Of a stretch of 19,925 nt of DNA, positions 163 through 19,441 are shown piece by piece. Below the pieces are notes generated by a model. The model did no database searches and was not told where the DNA came from. It was given only the letters and a program-made list of their open reading frames with translations. The first letter of the stretch is position 1. Every line of letters begins with the position of its first letter. The translations under genes and the position numbers were made by a program. The DNA comes from Candidatus Heimdallarchaeota archaeon. GTDB lineage: Archaea > Asgardarchaeota > Heimdallarchaeia > Heimdallarchaeales > Kariarchaeaceae. Location: contig WAKA01000198.1 of assembly GCA_015523565.1 (NCBI GenBank), positions 1 through 19,925 on the forward strand. The letters are read 5' to 3'.

Positions 163-3100
163 TTGGTGAAGACAAAAGAAAAACGTTCGGATTCAAAAGC
201 AAGATCTGCAAGCGCTGCAGTGTTCTTTAATGACAACAAAAGCATTGCTGGATTTGGAAACCCTTTACGGGCTGTTTTCACATCAATTCGTGAATTGGTG
301 GAAAATGCCCTTGATGCGGCAGAGAAAAGAAATGTAACTCCAAACATTTTGCTGCGACTCCGACGGATGACTGTCGATGAGGTATCCAATTTAATGGACA
401 TGGACTCAAGAAAGCTTTCCAACAAAAAACTTGACTTCCTTCAACTTTCCTGCCGGGATAACGGTGTTGGTGTGCCTCGTGAGTTAATCCCCCAACTTTT
501 TGGAACTGTCTTGGCAGGCACAAAATATGGCGCTCAACAAACTCGTGGAAGATTTGGTCTTGGAAGCAAAATGGTACTTCTATATTCCATGTCCACTTTG
601 GATTTGCCAATTCAAATTACAACTCGACCTATGGGCTCAAATGTTACTTATCGGGTCAAGTTGATGATAAATCTTGAGAAAAACAAGCCAATAATCATAT
701 CGGATGAAGAAATTCATGAAGGCGACCCTGAGTGGTTTGATGATTACGGAACAGAAGTCAAGGTATCTTTCACAGGAAATTGGGGACAAGCAAAAAATTA
801 TGTCCGTGAATACTTTAAACAATTGGCAATAATTACACCTTATGCAGATATGCATATTTTCCTTCCAGGTGATGAACCTGGTACTGAAGACGAATTGGTT
901 TTCAAAAGAGTGGTCGATGATCTTCCAAAACCACCAGAAGTTGTCCCTGTTCATCCTTGGGGGACGGACATTACCACGTTTAGAAGGGAAATGGCGCTTG
1001 CAGATCCCAATGATACCGTAGTCGAATTTTTGTCTAAAAATTTCATGGGTGTCACCCCTCAGGCTGCATTGGCATTCTTTGAAGAAGTTGGTGTTGATCC
1101 AAACAAAAAGCCCTCCGAACTGACTGAGAAAGATATACGCCGTATTGTGCATGATGGTTTTCAAAGGGCATTACGTGAAGCAAAAGAGGTAAAACGTAAA
1201 CGTGACAGGGTATTCAAGTTCGATGAACCCCGAGGTGATGCCCTTTCTCCTCTAGGGGCAGATAGACTCCGAAAAGGGATTGAGAAGGAACTTGAACCTC
1301 TTTTTGTTGAAGCAGTCACACGACCACCAAAAGCATATGAAGGACATCCATTTATCATTGAAGCCGCTATTGGATATGGGGGTGGCGTAAACAAGGCTGC
1401 ATCCTCTAAAGGGGTGACTGTCACAGACAATAAAGTCATCTACAGATATGCAAACAGAATCCCTCTAATTTTCGGTGCAGGAAATGATGTAATCACTCAA
1501 GTTGTCAACTCAATCAAATGGAATGAATATGGTCTGACGAGGCAGTCCGACCCATTGGCTATTGCCGTCTCCCTTGTCTCCACAAAAATACCATTCCCTG
1601 AAACATCAAAGGAATACATTGATAAGGTTGATGAAATTGCAGAAGAAATAAAGCTGGCATTGCATCAGTTGGGGAGAAAACTCAAGTCCTTCCTAAGTAG
1701 ATCCAGAAGAAAACAAAGAGAGCGTCAACGCCGTTCACGTTTCGAAAAGTATGCCCCAAAAACTGCCAGAAATCTTTTGGAAATACTTGCACGAGCAAAC
1801 CGATGGGATCCCGAAACAGGGGTGAAACCTGAACGCCTTATCGCAGCCCTTTCATCTGGTGAGCCAAGAATTGGACGATTTGACTTGCCAAGAGGTAAGT
1901 CTGTATTTATGGAACCTATATGGATGCCTGAAAAGTGGATCGAAAAATTGACACAAAATGAGATCTTCACTGTTGAGGATTTCTTGAGAACTCCAAACAA
2001 TAAATTAGCCAAAATATTGAGAAAAAAGGCAGATATAATTGACCAATATAAACGTCAGACTATCTTGATTTTCGGCGAATACGGCGATATCCCTAGTTTA
2101 CCTCTTGAGTTGCTTGTTCCTCCCGAAGTAGAGAAGAGATTTCATTCACGTGACGCAAATGTACAACTCCCCCATCTCTCAAAAGCGTTACCTCGACGTT
2201 GGATAAGGAATTCATGGGATTATTTGGTCACTCCTCCAAGTCTCTTGGATAAAGTCCAAGGATTGCTTCCTAAGTTAATTGAAGAAAAAAAGCTTGAATT
2301 GCTTTATGAAATCCAATCATTCAGGAAGAACCCTGTTGATGAAAATGTTGAGAACGTGCTTTCTCAACTTGAAAATTTTGAAAATGGTCAAGTCATAGAT
2401 TATAAAATAACCAATGAAGATATGGATACACTGGCAGAAATTATTACTCTTGAAAATGAGGAACCTGATCTTGAAGAACCTCAAACAGTTAAATTAGATC
2501 AAATCATGAAACCAGAAAACTTCCTTCCAACAGAGGAAGAATTGTTGGCTTTCCCTGACATTAAAAAACGAAAAGTCTCTGACTATATTGAGTTTCTTGT
2601 TGAAACAACCCATCCCTCAAATCCATTGAACGTTGATGCAATAGGTTCCGATCTAATAAAAATTTATGTGGAAAAGTTGAAACTGAAAAGTGAGGAATTT
2701 CCTGAAATTTTGGAACTTCGAATAGACACCCCCCAACCATGGCTGGACGGATATACCAGAAATGCGTTCAAAAGAAGAAAATTAGCTAAAATTAAAGATT
2801 TACTGGATTCTCCACAAGATATTGTCTTGGAAATCAAAGAATTCCAAAGATACATCTATGGAAAGCTAATTGATCTGTTTTTGTCATATGAAACCCCGCT
2901 GGACCCATTTTATGGAATGTCTGAGAATACTCATGAATTCTTCCCATTCCTTGAAAAATTAGGCATTGAAACATTGGAGGATTTGGCAACCATTAATTCC
3001 AATGAATTGGCAAAGCATCCCAAGATTGATCCATTACGAACTAAACTCTTTGAACAAAGTAAATCCCAACTTATATCTTATCTGATGGAAAGAAACAAAG

Positions 3101-6100
3101 TTAATTCTCTTCAAAATCTGAAGATTGTTCCTGCTGAGATCAAATCCTATATCCATGAGAATAATCTGGAAGACTTATACAGGTTCCTTTCAATCATCCC
3201 TAAAGACGAAAAGATCAAAGAATTGTTGTCGCCCTACAAGAAAAAATACAGCTACAAATTGGGCATGATTGGAAGTCCATATCAAAACTTATTGAAAAAA
3301 TACGGTATTTTTACTTTAGAGGAGTTTTATTATAATTTTGACACGATTTTCTCTTTCGTCACTGACTCCAATGACAAAGAGAAACTGTCTGATCTATTTG
3401 CAATTCTTGCAGAATCTGTTCACTTACTTTCCGAAGAATTAATTCCAAACCTTAATTTCCTTTATGATGCAGGAATTAATACTGTCGGAAAATTCTTGAT
3501 CTGGTCAAAAGAAGAAGTTTCTCGAATAACTGGCTTGTCTGAAGAATGGGTCTTGCTTATTGAAGAGGGCTTCAAAATTAAGACTATCACATTAAACAAA
3601 AAGAAGGATCCATTGATCAAAGACTGCACTATTTTCAATGAATTGGAAATTAATGCACTTCTCGCTTACGGGATTGAGAGGGTTGGACAATTGGCATCAA
3701 TCCTTTGGAAGGATTATTTGCCGCAATCCCTTTCTGGTTCTAAATTATTCAAGCATATGGAAATTAACGAACAGCTATATATGCCATTGGAAAAAATAGA
3801 ATCTTTCTTCAAGGATGACACTTTGAACAAAAACTTGAAGTCTGCCTTTTCCAAATTAACCAAAAAAGGCATTCATAATTTCAAGCAAATAATGGAAAGA
3901 CCCAACGCCCATATTTCATCAATGGTGACTGGCAAAAAGGCTAAAGAGGCAATAGATCTCTTTCTTTATCTCATTGATCATCCAGATCTAGAAGAAATCA
4001 ATAGTGACAGCCCGCTGTTCCAAGTATCCCAAATCTACAATGCAAAAAGGAAACTGGAATTGTCACTTGTTCACTTAAGCGAATTCACAAGTCCTGAGAT
4101 TGAAACATTGGGTAAAGAAGGTATTCGAACCATCTATCAGTTCTACCTATTGCCTATGTCCAAAAAAGAAAAAATACTCGGCATTTCAAGCAAAACAATC
4201 AAAAGCAAACTTCAAAGATCAACCCTTAAGCTTCATGGTACTCCAATTGCCATTGAGACCCAAAAAGGCAAATTCAGAAGTGCTTTTGAATTTGAAGTTG
4301 ACGGAATTTCACATTTTACCACCGTTGAAGTTGATTCATTGATACAGGCAGGATATGATACCATTGAAAAACTCTATTATCTCACTGACGTGAAAACATT
4401 CGAGGTATACGGCTTACAATGGAATGTCATTTCACAAATGAAATCATTGCTGAGGTCTCCTGCAATACTTCTTTCATGGAAACAAAAAATAATTGATGAA
4501 GCAACCTCAGATGAAAAACAGGAAAATGAGGAAGGCAAGACTGAAGAAACTCCTGAAAAATTCATTTACATAACATTGACTGCGGATGAACTTAAAAAAT
4601 TGTCAAAGGCTAAACTGACTAGGGTCTTTGACTTCCTAACTGCTCCTAGCGAATATCTTTCACAAATTTTGGGTTGGGACATTGAAAAAACAAAAGAAAG
4701 ACAAACAACGGCTATCTTGCAAGAAGTGGGAATTGAACTTGAATCTCTAAACCTCTTCAGACCAATACAGATTGAACATCTTAAACATGCAAATCTGTTG
4801 ACTGTGGAGGATCTCTATTTCTCCACTTTTGAGGAAAGCTGGTTTTCTGACCTTGTCCCATGGGAGGCGATTGCCACAATCAAAAAGCTATTGCAATTGC
4901 CTATTTCTTTTGCAGAAGAAGAATTGGGTGAAGAAATAATTGAAACACTTCAATCAAGTGGAATTAAGACAATAATTGATTTCTTGTTGACTGGGGATAA
5001 GATCCTTGAACAAAAAACATCCCTTCCAGCAGAAAGGTTTGAAAATCTGAAACATGCATTGGAGTTTTCATCACTTGTCGAGGCCTATGACAAGACAATA
5101 TTCTTCACACCAAATCTCAAATATTTTACTGCCAAAAAACTTCACCAGGCTGGAATTACAAAAATACTGGATCTATTGTCCACTCCCGTCTCTCAAATTG
5201 CCAAAATAACTGGACTGTCCAAGAATGAAATTAAAATCATTCTTGCAAACATTTCAAGAGAAACTGTCAATGAAGCAGAACAGGAAAACGGTATTCCTCT
5301 CAAGGACATTCGTCTTTTCTCAAAAAGTGAAATTCGAATAATCTCAAAATCGGGTGTGTTTGAAAGCAGTGATATCGACACTCTACAGGAACTGAAATTT
5401 CAACTCAAATCTAATTCATTCATAGATGACCCCCTTTTGGCGGCTCTTATCATGGATGCACAAAAAATACTGGATCTGAATTTGAAGTATTTCCCATCCA
5501 TTCCGACAGTACAACTTGAAAAGCTTGCAAGTGTTGGAATACAAACACTTTCCGATTTGCTTTTCGTTTCAGAGGAAGACCTTCCTGAAACCGATAAAGA
5601 AATTGATACACTGGTAACAAGATTAACCAACAGGTTTATCGATTTTAGACCATTTGTTGCAATGGAAAAAATACCTGCAAAAGCAATCTCTTCATCTGTT
5701 ATTGACGAATCAATTTTGGATGCATGGTTAAATAATCCCGAATTGTTGAACGCAGAAGCCCTAAGAAGATTGCCTTCCATGCTCTTGCTTGAATTTAATC
5801 AATCTCCTTTTGCAGAAGTCATTAAAACCCCACAAGAATTCATCGGTGAAGAAATTGTCGCCGAAATTCTGATCAGGTATGACCCAAATCAAGACACTTG
5901 GCTGATGCCCCTGTTTCAAAAATTCAATGAAGTGGGTTATCTAATTAATTTAAGCCAGATCTCCAATATCCCAATAACTGTTTTGAAACTTGATCCAATA
6001 AGTTTCAGGGCATTGATTAAGGCAAATCTTGTCAGCGTTGAAGAACTAATTCTTAGGGATCCCTATGAACTCTCTGAAAAAACCGGTCTTTCACTTAGGT

Positions 6101-9100
6101 TCTTTAGAGATCTAAAAGAAGATTTCTCAACTCACAAATATCGGGAAATTTTTGAAAAAATTGCCCTGCCAATACACTTGATACCTGACAATGAGGTGTT
6201 GCAACACCTTGAAAATGTAGGTATTCGATTTTTGGATCAGGTACTTCTCTATTCATCATCCAATGATGAACATATAAAGAGGATTTATGATTTCCTGTTT
6301 TCTGGAATTCTATTTCTTTCAGCATTTCCAGGTGAAATGGAACTTGCCTTGGAAGGGAAATCAAAAAACATTATTGAAGGAATACTTTATCTACGAAATC
6401 AAGGTCTGGAATTGGATATACTTAAAGATATTGTAAATCTTGGATGGTATTCTTGGTCTAACCTTGCAATTCCATTGCAAATAAATAATGAATGGACTGA
6501 ACAAAATCATGTATATTCAGTTCAGGATTTGCTCTATTATGTATTAAATGAAACTGTTCCTGAAAATATAATGTCTCATGTCTCTACATACTTCGATAGT
6601 CCCTTATTCCTTCCACTAAATGGGTCTCTGCTTGTTGATCTAGTCTACACCTATCGTTGTTTTTCAATTGTCCAAATATTCAGTAATCCCCTCCTTATTT
6701 CACTGTTGCCTGCTGATTTAAGAAAAAACATCAAAGAAACCCCTCCAAAATTAGTTAAGGAAGTCACTCTTGGAGTCGATCTTTTCAACAATATTTCAAG
6801 TAACGTATGGAGGTTCCTCAAAAAAGAAAATGAAAAAATCACTGTCCAAGAAATAATATCATCTCCAAGATTTCTCTCCAATTACAAGGGCATTCGCCAA
6901 TCAATTCTTAAATCTGCAAGAGATGCCCTAAAAGTTCCATTAAGCAGGATTGTGCATGAAAATGGCAGGTTGTCACATACTTATTCCAGTGTTTGGCTTG
7001 ATGAATTGATTTTCTTGTTGCCTTCCCTTTACACCAGTGATGAAGAAAGAGAGAAAATAAAACAAATCATCTCAATATTGAATGGAAAATTCAGTCTTGT
7101 TGCTGAACCTCAATTCAATGAGGATGTCATGTCAATTGTCTCAACTGCATTTGGTGAAAAGATAACTGGATTCCATCAATTTTGGGCAGTTTCTTGGTCG
7201 AAGGCAAAAGCCATCAGAAATTCGAACACCGAATTTGCTAAATTTGTACAGGGAATCATCAATAAGGCATTCCTCTCACTTTCATCAATCGTTGAAATTT
7301 CCAAAGAGGAAGTCTGGAATTTCTGGAAACTTGGGATCATTACAATTGCAGACCTTTTGCTGACCCCTCCTGAGTCCTTGTCAACTCCATACTTCTCAAA
7401 AAGACGACTCAAGGAAATCCAAGAATACGCAATGAATTTTATCTGTTCTTCTGATATTTCTGAAGAATTACCTGCAATTGATGTGTCCTTAATGGAAGAA
7501 CTTACTTTCATTGAAAAAGACGGCTTTGCAAAATTGCCTTTGCTTTATGCGACAACTTCGCATCCATTGGGGCGAAAATTCCATTCCTTCAACCAAATAC
7601 ACTTTACTTTGGCCCAACCGATTTATTTGACCAAACTGGCAGAAGTCTTATCCCTTGAAGAGGTTAAATCCTTATTCAAGCTACGGATTGTCTCACTGAT
7701 TGACTTGTTGGTTTACAATCAAACTGAAAGACTTCCAAACAAACTTCAGGATTTCAGTAAAAGAATTAAATTTGTCTCTGAAAATATATTGCCAATTAAA
7801 CAGGAAATTCAAATCAATCACCTTTCACCTCCAGACAAATTATCCCAGTTCTTCAAGGAGAACGAACTTAATTCTGTTACTGATGTGATTGAGTATTATT
7901 CCATCAATGAGGATTCATTTGGTGCTGAATTAATATATGCAAATCTAAGATATCTTCCTTTCAATCCAAAAACAAAAATGGAACTGAAAAATGCAGGTAT
8001 AAAATCGCTGATGGATATTCTGTTAATCCCTCCCTCTAAAATTGAAGACATATTCAACTATTCTGATTTCATTGAGCAACTATCTCTTAGACATGTTTCC
8101 AATGAAATAGAAAAAACCCCTCTGAAAATCAAGGAACTCGACAACTTAAGCTCCAAAGGTATTGAACGACTGTTATCAAATCACTATATTTCTGTTATGG
8201 ACATTGAAAACATTCCAAAAGGTCTTAGCAAAGCAGACGAGAAAATATTGTCAAAAATACTTGATGTCTTAAAGCTCCCAGCATATGTATTGCTGCATCT
8301 TAATGAATTTAATGAATTTGCTTCATTTTTGTTAAACATTAAAGACAATACCATTCAGGATATTATTGACCGATTAGTTGAAACCCCTGAACAACTGCAA
8401 GAAAAACTGAAACAAATAGACAATGAAATGCTCAATTCAATACCCAGTAACCTGAGACCATTGAACATGTTGGAGGCAATTAAGGCTCCAGAAGCTAGAA
8501 AACTTAATGCAAACGGTATTTTCATGTTTAACGAGCTATTGAAGAATAAACCAATTGTTGTCCAAATTCTTGGTGAAACTGCATATTCCGAAATTGAAAG
8601 AAGTCTGAAAGCTCCTGTTACAAATATCGTCAATCTTCCAAAAGAAATATTGGAAAAGTCTAAAAATATGGGTATAACAACCGTTGCAGACTTACTTGAC
8701 GATCCAAGGTCCAGGAACGAATTTGAAGATATTACACTCGTAATTGCCAAAGAAATTAAAATTAAAGACCTCTTTGATTCTGCATTGACAGAAGCTTTGG
8801 AGAAAATAAATGTCTATACTTTTTCAGATCTCATGGAAAATACAGATATTTCTGGACTTGGAGAAAATGGACTGAAAATTGTTCAACTGCTAAATCTCAA
8901 CATTGGTAGGCTAAAGTCTTTTAATTCACAATGGGTTAAACAACTGGCCTCAGAGAATATCTTTCGCGTTTGGCAGTTCCTCACCACTGATGAAGGACAC
9001 ATGGCAGATATTCTTGGAAAGAATGTCAGTTCAATCCGACAATTCAAAGAAAGCCTTACCCTGAAAGAATCCAATTTGAATTTAACACCAAACCCGTTGT

Positions 9101-10617
9101 TCAATGAATTAAAACAATTTGAGGAAATGCTTAATCTAGGCATCTTCGATTTCCAAGATTTCTTTGGTGACTTGACCCCCCATTCAAAAAGCTTTATTGA
9201 ACTAAAAGAAAAATACCTATGGCTGTCACAGATTCTTAGCCTTCCCATTTGGAAATATGAGGAATTTTGGAAACTTTCGAAGGACGAACGGGAAAAAATT
9301 GCATCAAAATCAGAAAAAGATGCAACGCTTTTGTCTCTTGCAATAAGAAACACAGATCTAATTGCTAAATTACTCATGAAAATCATCAATAATGCAAACA
9401 GAATCATCTCCCAAAATTTTGAACCTCTTCAATTCCCTGAAGAAATAATTCTAGAACTTCAAGACATGGGGATTCTTGAATTCCATCAATGGATGTTCGA
9501 ATTTATTAGGGGAAATGAATTCACAATTGAACATAAGGCATCCAGAAACTATTTCAGAAAATCTCTTCTATCTACTGGGTTATCTTCCAAACAAATCAGA
9601 CGTGCATTTAAAGAAGGTTATTCTCACATATCAGATATTCTTCTTAACGGAATAGACACATTCACCAAAAAGTTAAGACTAAAGAATCCTCTGGATATTA
9701 CTTATAATGCCCTAAAATCAACAATGCAACTCTATCCCATTGGATATTTCCCAAGAACAGTTCTTCAAGCATTGGATCAAAGTGAATTCAACGATTGGTT
9801 ACAATTATTGGGAACAATTTATAATTCTGATCTGATAGATGTTCAAGGGCTTACACCAAAAGCAATTGCCAATGCAAATGAACTCTTCTCCATCGGTATT
9901 TGGGAAACCACAGTTCTCAGAGGACTTGGATTACAAAAACTCAAGAAATTGGCTTCTGAAGGAATAATGACCATTGGAGACATACTTATCTCCAAAATGG
10001 AGGATATTTTGACTTTACTGTCCATGAGTCAGGAAGATTTCTACAAACTAATGAGTTCTTTAACAAAAGCAACTATAAATAAAGCAAGAAAAGAAGACAT
10101 AACAAGACTTTCGTTGTCACGAAAAATCAAGGTCAGTGAACTGGAAACCTATCAACATCATGGTATTCGATCTGTACTCCAAATTGCTATTAGGGCTTAT
10201 AAAAAACCAAAAGATGAAAAAATGATTGCAGGCATCAATGATATCTCCAGAATTTTGGATATGCCCCTGGAAGTTGCAGAACTTCCAGAAAATGTTAGGA
10301 AGAAAGCAATTGAAGCTGGAATAAAAACAATAGGACAGTTTTTGGTCTTGCCAGATGATACTCTAAAAACCTTAACAGGCATAACTCCAAAACAAATCCA
10401 AGCATTCAGAAAAGATATTCCATACGATGCATCTAAATTGAAAAAATTGGATAAGAAAGCATCATCAAAGAAACAAAAATCAAGTGGAAAGGCTAAAAAG
10501 AAAACGACTGGATCTACCCCTCCTCCAAAGGAGAAAGCAAAACAAAAGAAAAGTGATAAAAAAACCACCTCTTCAAAAAAAGGAAAGAAGGGTAGCAAAA
10601 GGAGTGTGAAGAAATAA
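163..10617 (+). CDS. top6B: DNA topoisomerase VI subunit B with giant C-terminal HhH-repeat extension and Lys-rich tail (3484 aa)
   Basis: GHKL motifs: RELVENALDA (N box), CRDNGVG (G1), GTKYGAQQTRGRFGLG (G2) and YGTEV. These are followed by an H2TH domain (GVTPQAALAFFEEVG), transducer motifs RYANRIPL and STKIPFPETSKEYI, and a basic stalk ending near nt 1800. The ORF continues without a stop to 10617 and overlaps the top6A start (TAATG). The start must be non-ATG (TTG 163 or GTG 166) because the first ATG falls after the N box. Confidence 0.95.
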   Translation: MVKTKEKRSDSKARSASAAVFFNDNKSIAGFGNPLRAVFTSIRELVENALDAAEKRNVTPNILLRLRRMTVDEVSNLMDMDSRKLSNKKLDFLQLSCRDNGVGVPRELIPQLFGTVLAGTKYGAQQTRGRFGLGSKMVLLYSMSTLDLPIQITTRPMGSNVTYRVKLMINLEKNKPIIISDEEIHEGDPEWFDDYGTEVKVSFTGNWGQAKNYVREYFKQLAIITPYADMHIFLPGDEPGTEDELVFKRVVDDLPKPPEVVPVHPWGTDITTFRREMALADPNDTVVEFLSKNFMGVTPQAALAFFEEVGVDPNKKPSELTEKDIRRIVHDGFQRALREAKEVKRKRDRVFKFDEPRGDALSPLGADRLRKGIEKELEPLFVEAVTRPPKAYEGHPFIIEAAIGYGGGVNKAASSKGVTVTDNKVIYRYANRIPLIFGAGNDVITQVVNSIKWNEYGLTRQSDPLAIAVSLVSTKIPFPETSKEYIDKVDEIAEEIKLALHQLGRKLKSFLSRSRRKQRERQRRSRFEKYAPKTARNLLEILARANRWDPETGVKPERLIAALSSGEPRIGRFDLPRGKSVFMEPIWMPEKWIEKLTQNEIFTVEDFLRTPNNKLAKILRKKADIIDQYKRQTILIFGEYGDIPSLPLELLVPPEVEKRFHSRDANVQLPHLSKALPRRWIRNSWDYLVTPPSLLDKVQGLLPKLIEEKKLELLYEIQSFRKNPVDENVENVLSQLENFENGQVIDYKITNEDMDTLAEIITLENEEPDLEEPQTVKLDQIMKPENFLPTEEELLAFPDIKKRKVSDYIEFLVETTHPSNPLNVDAIGSDLIKIYVEKLKLKSEEFPEILELRIDTPQPWLDGYTRNAFKRRKLAKIKDLLDSPQDIVLEIKEFQRYIYGKLIDLFLSYETPLDPFYGMSENTHEFFPFLEKLGIETLEDLATINSNELAKHPKIDPLRTKLFEQSKSQLISYLMERNKVNSLQNLKIVPAEIKSYIHENNLEDLYRFLSIIPKDEKIKELLSPYKKKYSYKLGMIGSPYQNLLKKYGIFTLEEFYYNFDTIFSFVTDSNDKEKLSDLFAILAESVHLLSEELIPNLNFLYDAGINTVGKFLIWSKEEVSRITGLSEEWVLLIEEGFKIKTITLNKKKDPLIKDCTIFNELEINALLAYGIERVGQLASILWKDYLPQSLSGSKLFKHMEINEQLYMPLEKIESFFKDDTLNKNLKSAFSKLTKKGIHNFKQIMERPNAHISSMVTGKKAKEAIDLFLYLIDHPDLEEINSDSPLFQVSQIYNAKRKLELSLVHLSEFTSPEIETLGKEGIRTIYQFYLLPMSKKEKILGISSKTIKSKLQRSTLKLHGTPIAIETQKGKFRSAFEFEVDGISHFTTVEVDSLIQAGYDTIEKLYYLTDVKTFEVYGLQWNVISQMKSLLRSPAILLSWKQKIIDEATSDEKQENEEGKTEETPEKFIYITLTADELKKLSKAKLTRVFDFLTAPSEYLSQILGWDIEKTKERQTTAILQEVGIELESLNLFRPIQIEHLKHANLLTVEDLYFSTFEESWFSDLVPWEAIATIKKLLQLPISFAEEELGEEIIETLQSSGIKTIIDFLLTGDKILEQKTSLPAERFENLKHALEFSSLVEAYDKTIFFTPNLKYFTAKKLHQAGITKILDLLSTPVSQIAKITGLSKNEIKIILANISRETVNEAEQENGIPLKDIRLFSKSEIRIISKSGVFESSDIDTLQELKFQLKSNSFIDDPLLAALIMDAQKILDLNLKYFPSIPTVQLEKLASVGIQTLSDLLFVSEEDLPETDKEIDTLVTRLTNRFIDFRPFVAMEKIPAKAISSSVIDESILDAWLNNPELLNAEALRRLPSMLLLEFNQSPFAEVIKTPQEFIGEEIVAEILIRYDPNQDTWLMPLFQKFNEVGYLINLSQISNIPITVLKLDPISFRALIKANLVSVEELILRDPYELSEKTGLSLRFFRDLKEDFSTHKYREIFEKIALPIHLIPDNEVLQHLENVGIRFLDQVLLYSSSNDEHIKRIYDFLFSGILFLSAFPGEMELALEGKSKNIIEGILYLRNQGLELDILKDIVNLGWYSWSNLAIPLQINNEWTEQNHVYSVQDLLYYVLNETVPENIMSHVSTYFDSPLFLPLNGSLLVDLVYTYRCFSIVQIFSNPLLISLLPADLRKNIKETPPKLVKEVTLGVDLFNNISSNVWRFLKKENEKITVQEIISSPRFLSNYKGIRQSILKSARDALKVPLSRIVHENGRLSHTYSSVWLDELIFLLPSLYTSDEEREKIKQIISILNGKFSLVAEPQFNEDVMSIVSTAFGEKITGFHQFWAVSWSKAKAIRNSNTEFAKFVQGIINKAFLSLSSIVEISKEEVWNFWKLGIITIADLLLTPPESLSTPYFSKRRLKEIQEYAMNFICSSDISEELPAIDVSLMEELTFIEKDGFAKLPLLYATTSHPLGRKFHSFNQIHFTLAQPIYLTKLAEVLSLEEVKSLFKLRIVSLIDLLVYNQTERLPNKLQDFSKRIKFVSENILPIKQEIQINHLSPPDKLSQFFKENELNSVTDVIEYYSINEDSFGAELIYANLRYLPFNPKTKMELKNAGIKSLMDILLIPPSKIEDIFNYSDFIEQLSLRHVSNEIEKTPLKIKELDNLSSKGIERLLSNHYISVMDIENIPKGLSKADEKILSKILDVLKLPAYVLLHLNEFNEFASFLLNIKDNTIQDIIDRLVETPEQLQEKLKQIDNEMLNSIPSNLRPLNMLEAIKAPEARKLNANGIFMFNELLKNKPIVVQILGETAYSEIERSLKAPVTNIVNLPKEILEKSKNMGITTVADLLDDPRSRNEFEDITLVIAKEIKIKDLFDSALTEALEKINVYTFSDLMENTDISGLGENGLKIVQLLNLNIGRLKSFNSQWVKQLASENIFRVWQFLTTDEGHMADILGKNVSSIRQFKESLTLKESNLNLTPNPLFNELKQFEEMLNLGIFDFQDFFGDLTPHSKSFIELKEKYLWLSQILSLPIWKYEEFWKLSKDEREKIASKSEKDATLLSLAIRNTDLIAKLLMKIINNANRIISQNFEPLQFPEEIILELQDMGILEFHQWMFEFIRGNEFTIEHKASRNYFRKSLLSTGLSSKQIRRAFKEGYSHISDILLNGIDTFTKKLRLKNPLDITYNALKSTMQLYPIGYFPRTVLQALDQSEFNDWLQLLGTIYNSDLIDVQGLTPKAIANANELFSIGIWETTVLRGLGLQKLKKLASEGIMTIGDILISKMEDILTLLSMSQEDFYKLMSSLTKATINKARKEDITRLSLSRKIKVSELETYQHHGIRSVLQIAIRAYKKPKDEKMIAGINDISRILDMPLEVAELPENVRKKAIEAGIKTIGQFLVLPDDTLKTLTGITPKQIQAFRKDIPYDASKLKKLDKKASSKKQKSSGKAKKKTTGSTPPPKEKAKQKKSDKKTTSSKKGKKGSKRSVKK
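1900..10420 (+). repeat. Protein-level tandem array of ~40 degenerate HhH-like (Rad51 N-terminal / RNAP alphaCTD-like) repeats within Top6B
   Basis: Recurring motif Lxx(A/x)GIxT(I/V)xD(L/F)L, often followed by xxxxLxxITG(L/I)S. Examples: FLEKLGIETLEDLA, LYDAGINTVGKFL..ITGLS, KLHQAGITKILDLL..ITGLS, LKNAGIKSLMDIL, AIEAGIKTIGQFL..LTGIT. Manual count is about 30 clear plus about 10 degenerate copies. No nucleotide-level identity between copies was seen. Confidence 0.8.
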
Positions 10618-12029
10618 TGACCAAGATAGAAATTCCCGTTAGAAATTCAACCATTTTACCCCCTGATAAAGGTGTTGTCGAAATTGACCTTGATTGGAGC
10701 GTAAAAGACCTGAAAAGTTTCTTGAAAATTGAATTTGGATTGCCAAGCTTGAAGTTTATCCCATTCCTCAGATCAAATAAGAAATGGTTCAGACTTGAAG
10801 GCAACAAACTGCTTTCTGATTATCCATTTGATGGAAAACGATTGGAAATTGACTTGAAGAGAGAAATTGACTTAACCAACTTCAAGGAATATTTCAAAAC
10901 CATGGTAAGTAGATATGACAAAGACAAAACCCTCCCATATGGAATTCTCTCTGTTGATAATGTCAGTGCAGAGGAAACAAGAAGAAGATTGGTCAATATT
11001 GTTGAAAAATTTGTTGTGGATGCATTGAAAAATCCTAATGATGCAAAACTCTATATCCCTTCAAGAGGTGGAGACAATATAGGCTTTGATGAGGATTCTG
11101 AATACGTGTTACTTGGAAGGCAAAAGATTGAAAGGGCATTCCGGAATCTCTCTTCCGTAAAATCATTTGCCCAATTAACCCAGCTCATGTTGATAATTGA
11201 AGAAATTCTCAGCAGAAACATCCATAACACAAAAAGGGATATTTTCTACAACGATGTCAACACATTCGAAACTCAAAGCACCTCTGATAACTTGATTGAA
11301 GATCTTAGTGCATTGCTACAAGTGACAAGACCATCTTTACATGTAACCGCAACATCCAAAGGCATTGTAATCGGAAGACTTCAGTTTGAAGAAAAAGGAG
11401 ACTTCATTGATTGCACAAAAATAGGGACTGGAAAATCCATTGCACCTGCAATAGATGATATAGAGAATATGCAGAGTGACGCTGAATTTGCCCTTGTCAT
11501 AGAAAAAGATGCAGTATTCAATAGACTTGCTGAAGATCAATTTTATGACTACGTTCCCTCAATATTGATCACCGCAAAAGGACAACCTGACATGGCCACA
11601 AGAATGTTCCTCAAGAAAATTGACGAGGAACTGCAGATCCCAATCCTTGCCATAATGGATGCTGACGTATATGGAATAGAAATCATGAGGGTGTATACCG
11701 TCGGTTCAAAATCTCTTAGCTTTGAAGCAGCCAATCTTGCAGTCCCTAACATGAAATGGCTGGGTCTCCTTCCAAGCGATCTGACAGAAGAATCTGGTTT
11801 CAATATTCCTGCATCCACTCACATCAAATTGACAAAAAATGATGAAAACAAAATCAAAATCATGTTGGAGGAGGAATTCGTCAAAAGAAAACCCGAATGG
11901 AGAAAAGAACTGGAAATCCTTCAACAGCTTGGAGTCAAGGCAGAAATACAGGCCTTAAATGCCAAGGATCCTCAATTCATAACTAACCAATATCTACCTG
12001 ACAAATTGGAAAGTGCAAGCTTCATTTAG
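10617..12029 (+). CDS. top6A: DNA topoisomerase VI subunit A (Spo11 family) with N-terminal ubiquitin-like domain (470 aa)
   Basis: Winged-helix catalytic motif TKRDIFY (Tyr211, nt 11247-11249) and TOPRIM motifs VIEKDA, TAKGQPD and MDADVYG, plus C-terminal KAEIQAL. The ATG overlaps the top6B stop, with SD-like AGGAGTG at 10600-10606. Residues ~1-80 show a ubiquitin-fold pattern. Confidence 0.96.
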   Translation: MTKIEIPVRNSTILPPDKGVVEIDLDWSVKDLKSFLKIEFGLPSLKFIPFLRSNKKWFRLEGNKLLSDYPFDGKRLEIDLKREIDLTNFKEYFKTMVSRYDKDKTLPYGILSVDNVSAEETRRRLVNIVEKFVVDALKNPNDAKLYIPSRGGDNIGFDEDSEYVLLGRQKIERAFRNLSSVKSFAQLTQLMLIIEEILSRNIHNTKRDIFYNDVNTFETQSTSDNLIEDLSALLQVTRPSLHVTATSKGIVIGRLQFEEKGDFIDCTKIGTGKSIAPAIDDIENMQSDAEFALVIEKDAVFNRLAEDQFYDYVPSILITAKGQPDMATRMFLKKIDEELQIPILAIMDADVYGIEIMRVYTVGSKSLSFEAANLAVPNMKWLGLLPSDLTEESGFNIPASTHIKLTKNDENKIKIMLEEEFVKRKPEWRKELEILQQLGVKAEIQALNAKDPQFITNQYLPDKLESASFI

Positions 12030-12821: not shown

Positions 12822-14711
12822 TTGGCGGTAACTACATTTGCATCCCGCCAAAAAATAATGGAGGCTCCAACAATAGTGACAGTAACAACCTCTTATACTG
12901 ATCTTGCAAGAAATGCAGAGGAAATCCTGAAACAAGCCATTAGCGCTGGTGATCCCGCGGATTTCATTAAAGGATACAATCTATATGAAAAGGCAATCTT
13001 ATATTTTGAAGGTGTAGGCAAAACCAAAGAGGCTAATATCCTCCTCGGTCGACTCGAAAAAATATTACAGGTTGTCATTGATCGTGGTGACCTTGAAGCA
13101 CCTTTCTATGCAAAACTTGGACCATTTTTCGTCTTATATGCCTATCACTTCAAAGCACGGATCTTGGAGGCGTTAAATCAGGATCTAAGCTCTGCCGTAA
13201 AAGCAAGGGTCGGCGCCCTTGAAATTGCTCAAGGTATCGAATGGATTGAACAAATCATTAACATAATTGTTGACCTATTGTTGGAAGATTTTGACGACTA
13301 CTGCTTACGATACCTGAAATATGCAAAGGACAAAAAGGCAGAACTTTTGGATGAACTGGAAATGCAGATTTCACAAATGCAATCCTCCAATAATAGAGGA
13401 TGGCTCTTCAAAAAGAAAGTCGATCCAAGAACAAAAGCTGAAAAAATCTATGATTCATTCCTCCATCTTATTGGTTTGATGGTTGAAAGATATTCAAAAG
13501 GAGAGTCCATTCTTAAGGACGCATTTGAAATATTACGGACTCTTAAAGAGTATTCCAATGATGATTTTGATTATTTGGATACTCGTATCATGGCTCTTGA
13601 AGCACATATCAGAGGATTTGCCACAGAGGACATTGATTCTTTTGAAGAATCCCATGTACGGTCAAAAATCCTTCCGTACACTCTGATGGATAATCCTAAC
13701 TTGAATGAACTTGAAAACTTAATGAGGGCATATGCCAGGAAAATGGGATTGGACATCCCTGTCTCCATTTCAGAAGTGCCCATCTTGGGTGCTAACCCAG
13801 CAGGATCCCCGCATTTGGCTGTGGTGGGACAAACGGGTGTTGGAAAAACAACTCTTACAAAACATATACTCAAAGAAAACAAAAGAGTCCAAGATACCAC
13901 CGTCTTTGTCTTTGATCATCACTTGGAATATTCCGATATCGCAGATCAAATAATTCAAATTGGCGGTGAGCAAAAACCAGAAGCAACACTTTTCTTCCCT
14001 GTTGAAGAAATTGGAGAGACATTCAAAACAGCTCAACAATTGATCCGTGACCAACAAAAAGTGTTTTCACAGGAAGGGGCCTCTCCTGAGGATCTTGCCA
14101 AAAAAATCCAAGATATTGAAGAACAAACCCGACCGAATGTCATGCGTTTCGTTATTGAAACAATTGAAGGGCTCCTTGATAAAGAGGAAGAAAGAATCCT
14201 GCCAACCGATTCATTGGACACCGTAGTTTTCTGGATTACCATGGATGAACCATGGATTACCACAACAATCATTTCAACAATCCTAAAACGACTTTTGAAC
14301 ATGGCTATCCAAGAAAAAATAACCAACAATGTCATTATTGTCACTGAAGAGGCACAAAACCTTTCCAATGATAAATGGCTGAAAAATCTGGCATCTGAAG
14401 GCAGAAAATTCGGTCTTTATTTGGTGGCAATTTCACAGGCTCCTGAATTTGATCCTTGGGTTGTCAGCAATTCTGAGCTTCTCATATTCAAATTAAGGAA
14501 ATCATTTAGCGTTAATTCAGACCTCCATAACCTATTTACCCCCCCAATCATGAAAATGATTCCTGTACTTGATGTTGGCGAATATTTGAGCTACCATCGA
14601 GACTTAAGGTCTTGGGTTTTAAGCTATAACCCTGAAATTCTGTCTCCTGTACATGCAAAGCAGGCGGTAGAAGCCAAAATTGAACAATTAAGAAAAATTG
14701 TGGGGTCTTAA
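12822..14711 (+). CDS. HerA/FtsK-superfamily P-loop ATPase with alpha-helical (MIT/TPR-like) N-terminal region
   Basis: Walker A HLAVVGQTGVGKT (GQTGVGKT at 13827-13850), HerA-type VFDHHLEY (cf. DxHGEY), Walker B IIVTEEAQ, Arg-finger SEGRKFG and sensor ISQ. The start is uncertain: TTG 12822, ATG 12858, or GTG 12876 behind GGAGG at 12860-12864. Confidence 0.85.
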   Translation: MAVTTFASRQKIMEAPTIVTVTTSYTDLARNAEEILKQAISAGDPADFIKGYNLYEKAILYFEGVGKTKEANILLGRLEKILQVVIDRGDLEAPFYAKLGPFFVLYAYHFKARILEALNQDLSSAVKARVGALEIAQGIEWIEQIINIIVDLLLEDFDDYCLRYLKYAKDKKAELLDELEMQISQMQSSNNRGWLFKKKVDPRTKAEKIYDSFLHLIGLMVERYSKGESILKDAFEILRTLKEYSNDDFDYLDTRIMALEAHIRGFATEDIDSFEESHVRSKILPYTLMDNPNLNELENLMRAYARKMGLDIPVSISEVPILGANPAGSPHLAVVGQTGVGKTTLTKHILKENKRVQDTTVFVFDHHLEYSDIADQIIQIGGEQKPEATLFFPVEEIGETFKTAQQLIRDQQKVFSQEGASPEDLAKKIQDIEEQTRPNVMRFVIETIEGLLDKEEERILPTDSLDTVVFWITMDEPWITTTIISTILKRLLNMAIQEKITNNVIIVTEEAQNLSNDKWLKNLASEGRKFGLYLVAISQAPEFDPWVVSNSELLIFKLRKSFSVNSDLHNLFTPPIMKMIPVLDVGEYLSYHRDLRSWVLSYNPEILSPVHAKQAVEAKIEQLRKIVGS

Positions 14712-15284: not shown

Positions 15285-16166
15285 GTGGAAAGTAAAAGAC
15301 GTATTAGGCAAAATCTAAGGCTGGAGATTGAATCAACTGCCCGTGAAATTCAAGAGCTTGAGGAGGAACTCAGCTCCAATCCCTCACCAGAAAAAGAACA
15401 AAACTTGGAAAAACTAAAATCATACTACGACAAACTACAAAAGCAATATGAAAGTATTTCTGGAATGGATCTTGAAACCGCATCGAAGCTAAAATCAATC
15501 AAGGTCACCAATAGTTCCTCTTCCAGTTGGACGAAAAAACTCATTCTTTCTATTTCTGCATTGCTGATGGCAGGCGGATTTTATAACATGATGTTACAGG
15601 CTCTGCAGGGATATACCATTAATGAGGTGATCATCGATATATCATCTGGATTTTTGGTCAGTGATTTTGACAAGCTAATTGCAAAAACTTTGACTGATCC
15701 TGCATTGACAATCATAGTTGCTACAGTTCTTTCTGGATCTATACTCAATCTAATTGGTGAACTTCTCCCCTCATCCAAACAAATTGATTGGATTGAAGCT
15801 GGAATGATTTTTATTGTGGGAATTGTCATGAGTTATTCCCTTCTTGGAAATCTCTTAGGTTTAATGTCTGAAGGCGATATTCGATGGATTTTCATTGATT
15901 TTGCATTTACCGTTGCCTTCATTCTTCTCTTGGCGGGAATTGCAGTGGGCTTTGCAAGCTTATTGTCAACTCCTGAATGGAATGATTATAAGGTATTGGG
16001 AATAATTGAAGCCTTGTTCATTATTGCCGCATCCGGTTCCTATTTCTTGGGAATCATCCTTGGTGGTGATCAAAATATCCTTTACCAATGGCCAAACATC
16101 TTCCTTTTGCTTTTGACCGCAATGTCAATTCGTACAATTCGTATGCTAATCAGAAAAGAAAGCTAG
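15285..16166 (+). CDS. Hypothetical membrane protein, N-terminal coiled coil plus ~6 TM helices (293 aa)
   Basis: Charged heptad-like N-terminal ~60 aa, a Ser-rich linker, then six hydrophobic segments. GTG start. Confidence 0.8.
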   Translation: MESKRRIRQNLRLEIESTAREIQELEEELSSNPSPEKEQNLEKLKSYYDKLQKQYESISGMDLETASKLKSIKVTNSSSSSWTKKLILSISALLMAGGFYNMMLQALQGYTINEVIIDISSGFLVSDFDKLIAKTLTDPALTIIVATVLSGSILNLIGELLPSSKQIDWIEAGMIFIVGIVMSYSLLGNLLGLMSEGDIRWIFIDFAFTVAFILLLAGIAVGFASLLSTPEWNDYKVLGIIEALFIIAASGSYFLGIILGGDQNILYQWPNIFLLLLTAMSIRTIRMLIRKES

Positions 16167-16225
16167 TGGAATGTTTCGCAGTAGTTACATTATTATTTCC
16201 CCATTCTTTTGACAAGTAAGTAAAT

Positions 16226-17527
16226 ATGAGTGCTCGCCCTGATGTGATCTGTTGGTCCTGTTTGCAACGGTCTCCCCTTGGCAAGTGTATCCATTGCGGG
16301 GAAACATTGACACTCCCTGTTGCCAAAAAAGAACCCACTGAAGAAGATATCAAAAAAAAATTTATCATTCAACTGCAACAAAAGGATGGCAGTACAACTG
16401 AATTTTACTATACCGACCTATTGAAAATCGTCAAAAAACATTTCATGGTTTTAAAAGAAATAATTGTTGCGTCACCTCAATTCATCGTGTCAATGAAAAA
16501 TGAAAATGACAATGTTGATGAAAAATTTCAAAACCTTTACGAGGAAAGCCAACAGTTTATTCCAGGATTGGTTCCAATACTCCAAAGGGACACTAGATTG
16601 GGAATTAACCAATATTTGATCTCATATTCATTTCTGCCTCAAACAAAACCATCCACAGGTCTAGTGAGGAATATCTTTTATTTTCTCTCCATTTTCAGTG
16701 TTATAATATCTGGTCTTCTTGTTTCGATCAAATACTTCAATATCATGAACCAAACAAATTATGGCTATCTAATGATCCAAAATTTTTACAATCCATGGGT
16801 TTGGGTTAATACTGCAATTTTCTCTTTAATCATCTTGGGTGTATTGCTGATAAGAATGAAAATCATTGAATTGGACTTTTTGAAACTCTCTGGCTATAGA
16901 CCAAAATTCCTTTGGATATTTGTCCCTCCCTTTTATGAAATGGGAACGCTTGGGTATCTCGTTATCGAACATAAACCTCATTTCAATAAACATGCCGCAA
17001 TAGTCTCCTCATTTCGGGGAAATTTCATAAGTTGGATAATATCGTCAATTCTTCTTGCAGTAACATCCTTCTTGAATTATCGAAATCCAGAAATGGCCAC
17101 TCAATTCGGCAAAACATCCATTGTTGCATCTGGATACTATGAACCGCTGATTTTTCGATTGCTTGAAATGCTTTTCTCATCAGAGGTTTACGTGAAATCA
17201 TTTTTGTTTCATCCCGCCTTTATTGCCTCCCTTATCACCTTTTATATAACTGGTCTCTCTTTTCTGCCTGCAATTCAACTATTCGGCGGATCAATTGTCC
17301 AATCTTCATCAAATAGGCTGATTGCTTATTTCACAACTTTCCTTGTCGTCATTGCTCTGTTCTATGTTGGATTGATTTGGTTAGCCATCCTGATTTTTCT
17401 TTTCCAAGACAGGTTCGGAAAAATTTATGTGCTGAATGGGGCAAGCACAAAACCTAGATATTGGAAACTGATTGTTGCCTTAATTCTTGTTGTCTCAATT
17501 CTTACATTTCCTCTTCCTTTAAATTAG
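16226..17527 (+). CDS. Site-2 protease (M50)-like membrane protein with N-terminal Zn ribbon, catalytic motifs absent (433 aa)
   Basis: N-terminal CWSC-x8-CIHC. M50-type scaffold motifs FVPP..MGTLG, FHPAFIA and FLPAIQLFGG (cf. NLLPxxxLDGG) are in the expected order, with multiple TM helices. No HExxH anywhere in the protein. Confidence 0.75.
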   Translation: MSARPDVICWSCLQRSPLGKCIHCGETLTLPVAKKEPTEEDIKKKFIIQLQQKDGSTTEFYYTDLLKIVKKHFMVLKEIIVASPQFIVSMKNENDNVDEKFQNLYEESQQFIPGLVPILQRDTRLGINQYLISYSFLPQTKPSTGLVRNIFYFLSIFSVIISGLLVSIKYFNIMNQTNYGYLMIQNFYNPWVWVNTAIFSLIILGVLLIRMKIIELDFLKLSGYRPKFLWIFVPPFYEMGTLGYLVIEHKPHFNKHAAIVSSFRGNFISWIISSILLAVTSFLNYRNPEMATQFGKTSIVASGYYEPLIFRLLEMLFSSEVYVKSFLFHPAFIASLITFYITGLSFLPAIQLFGGSIVQSSSNRLIAYFTTFLVVIALFYVGLIWLAILIFLFQDRFGKIYVLNGASTKPRYWKLIVALILVVSILTFPLPLN

Positions 17528-17571
17528 ATGAATACAAACAAGGTTATAATCTGGCGAAAAAAAAATAATGT

Positions 17572-18693: not shown

Positions 18694-18766
18694 AATTTTG
18701 AAATGAATTAAAATAGAATTGTCCTTGTTTCAAAAAAGCTTTAATTGACTTGAAAATCATTTAAAT

Positions 18767-19261: not shown

Positions 19262-19359
19262 CTGTTTTATTGATTCATTAACAGATTAAAGTATTGTCAT
19301 AAAAAAATAAAATTGTTAACAAACGGACTCTTTTATTATTTTTCACCGTAACCATTCGC

Positions 19360-19436
19360 GATAAAGATTAAATACTACAACAATCATACAATGGGTTAGT
19401 TACTTAATTCTCTGAGTTAAGTATGATAAAGGTGAG
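19360..19436 (+). promoter_or_regulatory. Pilin promoter, inverted repeat and RBS
   Basis: GATAAAG followed by ATTAAATA (BRE/TATA-like, 19360-19374). Inverted repeat TACTTAATTC-tct-GAGTTAAGTA at 19401-19423. Archaeal SD AGGTGA at 19430-19435, 6 nt before the ATG. Confidence 0.55.
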
Positions 19437-19441
19437 AAATC

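Follow-up and report, generated by a model that had tools for sequence, protein, structure and literature searches.

A topoisomerase VI with a giant B subunit and a ubiquitin-like domain on its A subunit in Heimdallarchaeia

The window analysed here, 19,925 nt of the forward strand of contig WAKA01000198.1 from Candidatus Heimdallarchaeota archaeon (GCA_015523565.1), encodes the genuine and apparently only topoisomerase VI of this organism, a type IIB A2B2 enzyme of roughly 0.9 MDa. Both subunits are enlarged. Top6B continues for ~2940 residues after its core, and Top6A begins with a ubiquitin-like domain. This design is inherited throughout Heimdallarchaeia and is class-wide, not peculiar to this locus. 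The initial annotation of the sequence had pointed to ~2900 extra residues in B and a ubiquitin-like domain in A, and both additions are real. The locus contains the following features:

163..10617, + strand: top6B gene, 3484 aa, ~400 kDa, a single unbroken open reading frame
163..1797, + strand: canonical Top6B core (aa 1-545), with GHKL ATPase, probable H2TH region and transducer
283-660, + strand: GHKL ATPase (aa 41-166), Pfam HATPase_c
1228-1731, + strand: transducer (aa 356-523), Pfam PF09239
1798..2328, + strand: neck (aa 546-722), the best-conserved part of the extension, with its first two HhH-type units
2329..2490, + strand: acidic, indel-rich linker (aa 723-776), predicted disordered
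2491..10362, + strand: train of RAD51-N-terminal/(HhH)2-like domains of SAM-like fold (aa 777-3400), from profiles and a structural model
10363..10614, + strand: Lys/Ser/Thr-rich basic tail (aa 3401-3484), the last 84 residues, net charge +26, pI 10.7
10615..10619, + strand: TAATG stop/start overlap of top6B and top6A, with a shared A
10617..12029, + strand: top6A gene, 470 aa
10617..10916, + strand: ubiquitin-like beta-grasp domain (aa 3-82) and helix (aa 87-100) of Top6A, from a structural model and profiles
11160..11345, + strand: 5Y-CAP / TP6A_N domain (aa 182-243) with invariant Tyr211, Pfam 72.8 bits
11487..12008, + strand: Toprim domain (aa 291-464) with invariant E296, D348 and D350, PF21180, 200.5 bits

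The two genes are translationally coupled through TAATG. Translation of top6B begins at TTG 163 or, as in the database copy (3483 aa), at GTG 166; databases label the giant Top6B proteins either "Top6B" or "hypothetical protein". Where relatives have both genes on one contig, top6A starts 5-11 kb downstream of the transducer, and in some fragmented assemblies of relatives the genes lie on separate contigs. A scan for sigma-70 promoters and terminators, with a model ill-suited to archaea, found sites no commoner than in shuffled sequence.

The core of each subunit is that of a conventional topoisomerase VI. The NCBIfam Top6B equivalog PRK04184 matches aa 5-545 with 467 bits (cut-off 274), TIGR01052 matches with 394 bits, and the transducer profile PF09239 aligns over its full length (1-159 of 159) with 186.7 bits. 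HATPase_c scores 25.6 bits, slightly below its gathering cut-off of 26.4, and the H2TH stretch is covered only within the PRK04184 alignment (aa 5-545 against model positions 4-494 of 539). The translation contains ELVENALDA, DNGVG and GRFGLGSK, which we take to be the N-box, G1 and G2 motifs of the Top6B family. In Top6A, Y211, E296, D348 and D350 are invariant among 35 homologues, and Y211 is probably the catalytic tyrosine, given its position in the motif. Compared with canonical reference structures (S. shibatae 2ZBK; M. mazei 2Q2E and 9O0G/9O8P; M. jannaschii Top6A 1D3Y), the Top6A model gave Foldseek E values of 1e-24 to 1e-17, with 9o0g, 1d3y and 2zbk at 1e-24 to 1e-22. The enzyme shares with canonical topoisomerase VI the GHKL and transducer parts of the B core, probably with the H2TH region between them, the 5Y-CAP/Toprim core of A, all catalytic motifs and overlapping genes in a B-A operon. 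With intact catalytic motifs in both the ATPase and the cleavage subunit, it appears functional, as the initial annotation had proposed.

The length of top6B is not an error of assembly. Its 3484 codons contain no stop, and an open frame of this length in DNA of 36% GC cannot have arisen by chance. An identical protein is on database record, on a 133.8-kb contig. Frames of 2300-4300 aa that include the Top6B transducer are present in nearly all sampled Heimdallarchaeia, including those with single-contig genomes, and in families f1-f5 and f20 of our survey giant open frames surround the transducer. Seven family proteins (the query and six orthologues) are 35-57% identical and collinear; gaps amount to 0-5% per 100-residue window over most of the alignment and 7-17% in two windows and the tail. 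There are no DNA-level repeats in the gene that could mislead an assembler. Unusual size alone would suggest a chimeric assembly, several genes read through as one or a pseudogene in decay, an explanation of negligible probability that is effectively refuted by the open frame, the collinearity and the recurrence of the same fusion in dozens of genomes from several families. The stop, frameshift or misassembly that had been considered as an objection is excluded by conservation of the fusion in >60 genomes, single-contig ones among them.

We assign the repeated units of the arm to a five-helix SAM-like fold with two hairpins, of the RAD51-N-terminal/(HhH)2 type. In an AF2 model of aa 546-1745 (mean pLDDT 83.9, pTM 0.66), five-helix units recur, with small beta inserts near aa 1363-1384 and 1437-1471. 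One unit superimposes on the N-terminal domain of RAD51C (VIA-align Z 8.7, rmsd 1.9 Å, 62 of 64 residues), with RAD51D, RNAP alpha-CTD, NusA AR2 and SAM domains ranking below it; helical domains as small as these give modest Z values. Pfam matches within the arm are RAD51D_N (83 bits, cut-off 27.3), HHH_5 (35.4 bits, cut-off 27) and RNA_pol_A_CTD; PF26169 is among the precomputed Pfam matches of homologues. A Foldseek search with the 1200-residue arm model, whose length puts it at a disadvantage in such a comparison, returned nothing at E up to 0.001, and local matches to RadA/RAD51 N-terminal domains had probabilities of 0.90-0.99 with weak E values. No PDB sequence matched the extension at E up to 1 (phmmer). 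Among 1.84 billion representatives, the arm has just 36 relatives, most of them giant Top6B proteins or apparent fragments of these.

The number of units depends on how they are counted. About 16 are visible in the model, and profiles pick out ~31 along the full arm, with single-unit HMMs and hhalign profiles recovering just 16-31. The region aa ~2013-2380 escapes profile detection and shows, by eye, the same "h..x.h.s/tV.-hh" pattern. Extrapolation from ~16 units per 1200 modelled residues gives an estimated total of ~40 domains.

Charge along the extension follows a pattern common to all seven family proteins. The junction region (aa 501-600) is basic, at +7 to +15; the window at aa 701-800, which includes the linker, has a net charge of -11 to -26; and the tail carries +12 to +56. 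The linker coincides with pLDDT <50 (model residues 178-231) and with alignment gaps. The tail keeps its composition, not its sequence, in all full-length homologues. The arm as a whole has a net charge of -71 and a pI of 5.3, and it is acidic in all seven proteins. Canonical GhG motifs number 2 in 2810 arm residues, compared to 5 in the 594-residue extension of a shorter Top6B from the sister Heimdallarchaeia family f7. Canonical hairpins thus appear to have been lost along the arm, and most units retain a single-glycine "G-I/L-x-T/S" hairpin. The net acidity and degenerate hairpins make DNA binding over the full length of the arm doubtful. Known proteins contain DNA-binding hairpins of the RAD51/RadA N-terminal type with a single glycine, however, so acidity alone is insufficient to exclude DNA contacts along the arm.

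The explanation we prefer, to which as a whole we give somewhat less than an even chance, is a tethered decatenase with spacer arms and a docking ubiquitin-like domain. Because positive potential is confined to the neck, beside the DNA gate, and to the distal tail, with an acidic arm between that has all but lost canonical GhG hairpins, the two arms are most likely long, semi-rigid spacers; the only indication of rigidity is the pTM of 0.66 of the model. The tails would fasten the enzyme to DNA or chromatin, with the neck stabilising the G-segment. The tethered enzyme would be specialised for chromosome unlinking (decatenation), leaving supercoiling to gyrase. The ubiquitin-like domain would most likely serve as a docking handle for a partner. 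Of the initial interpretation, the A2B2 enzyme with both additions stands; its "chromosome-organising or repair-coupled machine" is a conjecture, and none of the features described here shows repair chemistry.

Alternatively, all ~40 (HhH)2-type domains could contact the DNA backbone and wrap or line extended tracts of duplex, conferring high affinity, salt tolerance and processivity. Precedents for a DNA-coating HhH arm are Methanopyrus topoisomerase V and engineered HhH-polymerase chimeras. The unit fold itself is consistent with this possibility, as is the presence of Topo V chains (8df9, 5hm5, 2csb and 4gfj) among the long, low-confidence Foldseek alignments. The GhG motifs kept in the shorter f7 relative (HHH_5, 95 bits) suggest DNA binding by the ancestral extension. 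Those Topo V alignments have probabilities of only 0.02-0.05, however, and the acidity of the arm in all seven proteins, the near absence of GhG and the lack of any PDB sequence match also argue against it. We consider a DNA-coating arm doubtful though credible, and less likely than a tethered decatenase with spacer arms. The type IC topoisomerase V of Methanopyrus kandleri resembles the protein described here in placing a long train of tandem (HhH)2 domains, 12 in its case, behind a topoisomerase core (PMC9489208). Its catalytic module is unrelated to the type IIB enzyme described here, in which the N-terminal module is Top6B. In Top6B the arm has ~40 domains instead of 12, is acidic, carries degenerate hairpins and shows no significant match to Topo V in sequence or structure. 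It has no sequence similarity by which to align it to the Topo V repair domains and their AP-lyase lysines, and it gives no sign of AP-lyase sites.

A second alternative is that the SAM-like/RAD51-N-like and ubiquitin-like domains form a scaffold that docks replication, repair or segregation factors, or self-associates, without binding DNA. Many SAM domains are among the structural neighbours of the arm units, as are protein-binding modules such as RNAP alpha-CTD and NusA AR2. In the orthologues the units are each conserved in place, most strongly at aa 1400-1800 and 3300-3400, as would be expected of distinct binding sites. Free ubiquitin-like proteins are encoded in the same genome. In the family with Top6B proteins of 4200 aa, the tails share a conserved KQTTLLD motif similar to a PCNA-interacting peptide. 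This motif is absent, however, from the query Top6B and from the tails of its own family; moreover, the analysis brought out no partner and no conserved neighbouring gene beyond top6A. We regard a pure scaffold as unlikely.

On the A subunit, the evidence for a ubiquitin-like domain comes from both profiles and structure. A profile of Top6A residues 1-125 matches ubiquitin chains in the PDB, and among 28 Top6A homologues Pfam finds ubiquitin in 8/28, Rad60-SLD in 3/28 and UN_NPL4 in 10/28. In the AF2 model, DSSP assigns the order E3-10, E17-24, H29-39, E47-53, E56-59, E76-82 in a block with pLDDT 83-90, and the domain aligns with ubiquitin variants at TM 0.63-0.74 and rmsd 2.5-3.4 Å. The fold ends without GG and runs on into the helix at aa 87-100 and the Top6A core, with a low-confidence linker at aa 102-107. 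Lacking a free C-terminal di-glycine, the domain is non-conjugatable. A complex prediction of Top6A 1-105 with the Top6B neck (aa 546-930), both with alignments, gave a score of 0.00, which is uninformative either way. Beta-grasp domains integral to larger proteins are familiar from the FERM F1 lobe, RA/RBD and UBX/NPL4-type domains; unlike those, the domain described here is fused to the DNA-cleaving Spo11/Top6A subunit.

Comparison with known systems sets the two additions apart. Top6B is ~6 times longer here than in canonical enzymes because of the ~40-domain arm and basic tail, and canonical Top6A has no N-terminal ubiquitin-like domain. The C-terminal extra of M. mazei Top6B is an Ig-like domain of only ~100 aa (PMC9348778). 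The N-terminal domains of RAD51/RadA and their paralogues, RNAP alpha-CTD and NusA AR share the fold of the arm units. Domains of this type occur singly or in pairs within a protein, whereas here a train of ~40 is fused to a topoisomerase. The closest simpler form is the f7 Top6B (L014:479-3823), which at 1114 aa has an orthologous core with the same GHKL insertion, a C-terminal HhH extension and top6A directly downstream. Its extension is only ~600 aa, and its 403-residue Top6A has no ubiquitin-like domain that we could find. The Top6B core of the query is 42% identical to this long f7 protein and 34% identical to the short Top6B of the same family. In the literature searched, we found no account of a giant Top6B arm or of a ubiquitin-like-Top6A fusion, in agreement with the suggestion that the architecture is undescribed.

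We surveyed 251 Asgard genomes, grouped in families. Top6B frames in other Asgard families are ~400-680 aa, and within Heimdallarchaeia the protein falls into steps of ~1100 (where no ubiquitin-like domain was found), ~2300, ~3500 and ~4300 aa. The ubiquitin-like profile matched in f1 (8/8), f2 (25/26), f3 (1/1), f4 (3/3), f5 (17/18), f6 (2/2) and f20 (2/2), and gave no match in f7 (0/8), f11 (0/65) or f14 (0/61). The domain is thus found almost only with an enlarged Top6B (>2000 aa in every complete frame), so the two additions, whose co-occurrence the initial annotation had proposed to test, do occur together across genomes. Such co-occurrences are weak as statistics because they probably go back to a single evolutionary event or very few.

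A second, conventional topoisomerase VI, which the initial annotation had raised as a possibility, was not found in this genome: there is a single Top6B match, and in a MAG that is 90% complete another could be missed. GyrA is encoded instead, as in 10/11 genomes of f1, 31/31 of f2, 1/1 of f3, 3/3 of f4, 21/22 of f5 and 2/2 of f6. Family f7 has no GyrA (0/12) and has a second canonical topoisomerase VI instead; f20 has no GyrA and two Top6B matches. Each sampled lineage with an extended Top6B therefore has a second type II enzyme, gyrase or canonical topoisomerase VI. A strict link between gyrase and giant Top6B was rejected, since f20 combines a giant B and a ubiquitin-like A with no GyrA. 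Top6B C-terminal extensions have also been noted in gyrase-bearing archaea (PMC9348778).

A bolder reading, which we consider quite improbable, is a megadalton two-armed machine for handling chromosomes instead of a soluble decatenase. The arms, which by an order-of-magnitude estimate from ~40 domains of 2.5-3 nm would measure some 100 nm when extended, would be anchored by their histone-H1-like tails to two different duplexes and feed crossings to the core. The ubiquitin-like domain would let a Cdc48/proteasome-type segregase take hold and extract trapped covalent Top6A-DNA complexes. If such a handle exists, it would foreshadow the ubiquitin/SUMO-dependent pathway by which eukaryotes clear trapped Top2. 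Among known archaea, Heimdallarchaeia are the nearest kin of eukaryotes.

For the topoisomerase and eukaryogenesis fields, these findings reveal stepwise growth of the B subunit, from ~1100 to 2300, 3500 and 4300 aa. Together with the ubiquitin fold on A and the presence of a second type II enzyme, this growth points to an unrecognised specialisation of a strand-passage enzyme. Plant Topo VI partners BIN4/RHL1 offer a possible parallel (PMC9665070); the C-terminal domains of GyrA/ParC and the C-terminal region of Top2 are further possible parallels. As a sensor of DNA crossings, canonical topoisomerase VI works slowly and distributively, and its affinity for a G-segment on its own is poor (PMC8837201). 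The design described here offers a direct route to understanding how such a sensor is tuned by accessory modules that bind DNA or partners.

A giant Top6B and a Top6A carrying an N-terminal ubiquitin-like domain are encoded by two open reading frames (ORFs) joined by TAATG, an overlapping stop and start. The initial annotation read the pair as a functional-looking topoisomerase VI (Topo VI), and every element that it listed was found in the window, namely both ORFs, the overlap, the catalytic motifs and the added parts.

Features of the window
163-10617, forward strand: top6B, an uninterrupted ORF of 3484 codons
10617-12029, forward strand: top6A, an ORF of 470 codons
12022-12594, reverse strand: 190-aa ORF with no family match, between top6A and the HerA/DUF87 gene, its end overlapping the top6A stop
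12822-14711, forward strand: HerA/DUF87-type P-loop ATPase, 629 aa, just downstream of top6A
15285-19870, forward strand: run of same-strand ORFs
18767-19261, forward strand: GNAT acetyltransferase
19442-19870, forward strand: 142-aa protein with an archaeal type IV pilin N-terminus

Residues 5-545 of Top6B match the NCBIfam equivalogs PRK04184 (467 bits, cut-off 274) and TIGR01052. Pfam matches the GHKL ATPase and, at 187 bits, the transducer (aa 356-523). The translated sequence directly shows the N-box as well as the G1 and G2 motifs. Top6A contains TP6A_N (aa 182-243) and Toprim (aa 291-464), with Tyr211, Glu296, Asp348 and Asp350 invariant in 35 homologues; the AF2 model of this subunit, with a mean pLDDT of 83.6, matches the Top6A structures 9o0g, 1d3y and 2zbk at E values of 1e-24 to 1e-22. 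Within the run at 15285-19870, possibly a surface or pilus module, one ORF of 373 aa gives a faint signal-peptidase S26 match, a 293-aa ORF has just one chance family match, below the cut-off, and a 433-aa ORF has no family match.

Misassembly or a frameshift after the Top6B core, which the initial annotation had allowed for, is contradicted by homologous fusions and collinear alignment. In relatives' genomes, the open frame around the transducer measures about 3470-3590 aa in members of the window's family and about 3570-4305 aa in three other families of the same order, with frames of 4185 and 4305 aa in two single-contig genomes. An identical protein is recorded in the protein database on a 133.8-kb contig, and database homologues span 3468-4341 aa, one of them named as the Top6B of 'Candidatus Heimdallarchaeota archaeon'. 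The window's Top6B and six orthologues, which share 35-57% identity, can be aligned collinearly, with gaps mostly of 0-5% per 100-residue interval that climb to 7-17% in two intervals and the tail. Among them the core is 60-98% identical, the neck 46-80% and the arm 11-79%. Neither tandem nor dispersed repeats were found at the DNA level. Given giant frames across the class, the identical copy and the collinear orthologues, we reject an artefactual origin; the fusion of core and extension is therefore an old gene kept by selection. In one family member (G006:C4:6169-6732) the transducer frame is only 629 aa; the start of the ubiquitin-like Top6A (15827) lies 9.6 kb downstream of it, which points to a sequencing error or a frameshift in that MAG and not to a short gene. 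A second, conventional Topo VI was not found in the window's genome (3.57 Mb, 90% complete), where a profile search gave a single match to the transducer family.

Beyond the core, Top6B runs through a conserved neck (aa 546-722), a variable acidic linker and a train of domains to a Lys/Ser/Thr-rich tail. Pfam matches in this extension are RAD51D_N (83 bits), HHH_5, RNA_pol_A_CTD and DUF4332. An AF2 model of aa 546-1745, made from an alignment of 18 sequences (mean pLDDT 83.9, pTM 0.66), has about 16 repeated five-helix units and is disordered in two places, at aa 723-776 and at 1448-1464. Sequence profiles recovered 16-31 units over the whole arm, and extrapolation from the modelled part gives an estimate of about 40. 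The unit at aa 1575-1641 is closest to the RAD51C N-terminal domain (VIA-align Z 8.7, rmsd 1.9 A, 62/64 residues), followed at lower rank by RAD51D, AF1548, NusA AR2, RNAP alpha-CTD and SAM domains. Short beta inserts are modelled between helical units at aa 1363-1384 (window about 4249-4314) and 1437-1471 (4471-4575); these non-HhH elements flank the disordered acidic loop at aa 1448-1464, inside the arm's best-conserved block. Only 36 relatives of the arm segment were found among 1.84 billion representative proteins, most of them giant Top6B proteins or apparent fragments thereof, so the train probably diversified within its own gene family.

Canonical GhG hairpins number 2 in 2810 arm residues, compared to 5 in the 594-residue extension of the long Top6B of f7, a sister Heimdallarchaeia family; the f7 protein scores 95 bits on HHH_5. 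The core of the f7 long form is orthologous to that of the window (42% identity, GHKL insertion in common), and the short f7 form is 34% identical to the window's core. A plausible history is early gain of a DNA-binding HhH extension, then expansion and degeneration. Tails (C-terminal 90 aa) of the 4200-aa family (homologues P0011, P0012, P0014-P0018 and P0020-P0022) carry a conserved K/R-Q-T/I-T-L-L/F/M-D motif that resembles a PCNA-interacting peptide; it was not found in the tails of the window's Top6B or its own family.

The added domain of Top6A (aa 3-82) is modelled as a beta-beta-alpha-beta-beta-beta fold (block pLDDT 83-90). Below Top6A and Spo11, structure search with the Top6A model returned ubiquitin variants (TM 0.63-0.74), FERM F1 lobes and RA domains, and a 28-sequence profile of the domain matches PDB ubiquitin chains. 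Pfam ubiquitin, Rad60-SLD and UN_NPL4 match 8, 3 and 10 of the 28 homologues, respectively; none of the three matches the window's own copy. Because the domain is embedded in Top6A and lacks a C-terminal di-glycine, it is not a conjugatable modifier. The simplest role to propose for it would be that of a docking handle. The window's genome also has three small free matches to the ubiquitin family, two as neighbours (G000:C97:19952-20131; G000:C104:1344-1900). A ubiquitin-type system may therefore exist there, and with it possible readers of the domain.

Across the class, Top6B sizes fall into discrete steps. Besides the giant frames, a family whose genomes are 4-6 Mb has frames of about 2312-2346 aa, family f6 of at least 1323-1359 aa, and f7 of 1108-1123 aa; f7 carries in addition a canonical second copy, 498-523 aa long. 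The remaining families among 251 Asgard genomes have frames of about 400-680 aa, except f20 (2286-2293 aa) and f27 (1353 aa). Searched against this set of 251 genomes, the ubiquitin-like profile matched f1 (8/8), f2 (25/26), f3 (1/1), f4 (3/3), f5 (17/18), f6 (2/2) and f20 (2/2), and did not match f7 (0/8), f11 (0/65) or f14 (0/61). Every complete Top6B frame in the positive families exceeds 2000 aa; those of f6 measure at least 1323-1359 aa. The two additions thus co-occur, a pairing that the initial annotation had proposed to check, and the domain is found almost only with enlarged Top6B, barring one marginal match with internal stops. The ubiquitin-like domain of these families lies 5-11 kb downstream of the transducer when on the same contig, and on a separate contig in some fragmented assemblies.

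GyrA was found in f1 (10/11), f2 (31/31), f3 (1/1), f4 (3/3), f5 (21/22), f6 (2/2) and f27, and in the window's genome on a different contig; none was found in f7 (0/12) or in f20, which has two Top6B matches. With GyrA in most and a second Top6B in f7 and f20, each sampled lineage with an extended Top6B has another type II topoisomerase as well. The co-occurrence patterns are not independent observations and probably go back to a very small number of evolutionary events. In many relatives (genomes G015, G020, G035, G046, G028, G002 and others) the GyrA match is split (profile 1-41 or 1-93, then 37/92-431) within open frames of about 1270-1726 aa, a pattern that would be expected for intein-containing GyrA.

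Canonical Topo VI works slowly and distributively as a sensor of DNA crossings, prefers decatenation and binds a lone G-segment poorly (PMC8837201). Archaea with gyrase tend to have C-terminal extensions on Top6B, and this has been interpreted as a division of labour (PMC9348778). In the window's Top6B, the arm (aa 591-3400) has a net charge of -71 (pI 5.3) and the last 84 residues +26, and all seven family proteins have a junction of +7 to +15, a linker of -11 to -26, a mildly acidic train and a tail of +12 to +56. Since positive charge is limited to neck and tail, we tentatively favor, at a little under even chances, a tethered enzyme specialised for unlinking. Anchorage to DNA or chromatin would come from its tails and added grip on the G-segment from the neck, and the acidic train would serve as a long spacer. 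An arm that binds DNA over its entire length, as in Topo V, is unlikely. Slightly more doubtful still is an arm that acts as a protein-docking scaffold. Foldseek with the arm model gave local RadA/RAD51 matches, and Topo V alignments were of low probability only.

Neither a giant HhH-bearing Top6B nor a Top6A with a ubiquitin-like domain was found described in the Topo VI and Asgard papers searched, in agreement with the earlier view of an undescribed architecture; on Asgard Top6B, published surveys mention only a 'globular CTD' and extra helices. What the window contributes is the 3484-aa variant of its own family, the conserved charge pattern along Top6B, the canonical hairpins lost in comparison with the f7 form, and the constant presence of a second type II enzyme.
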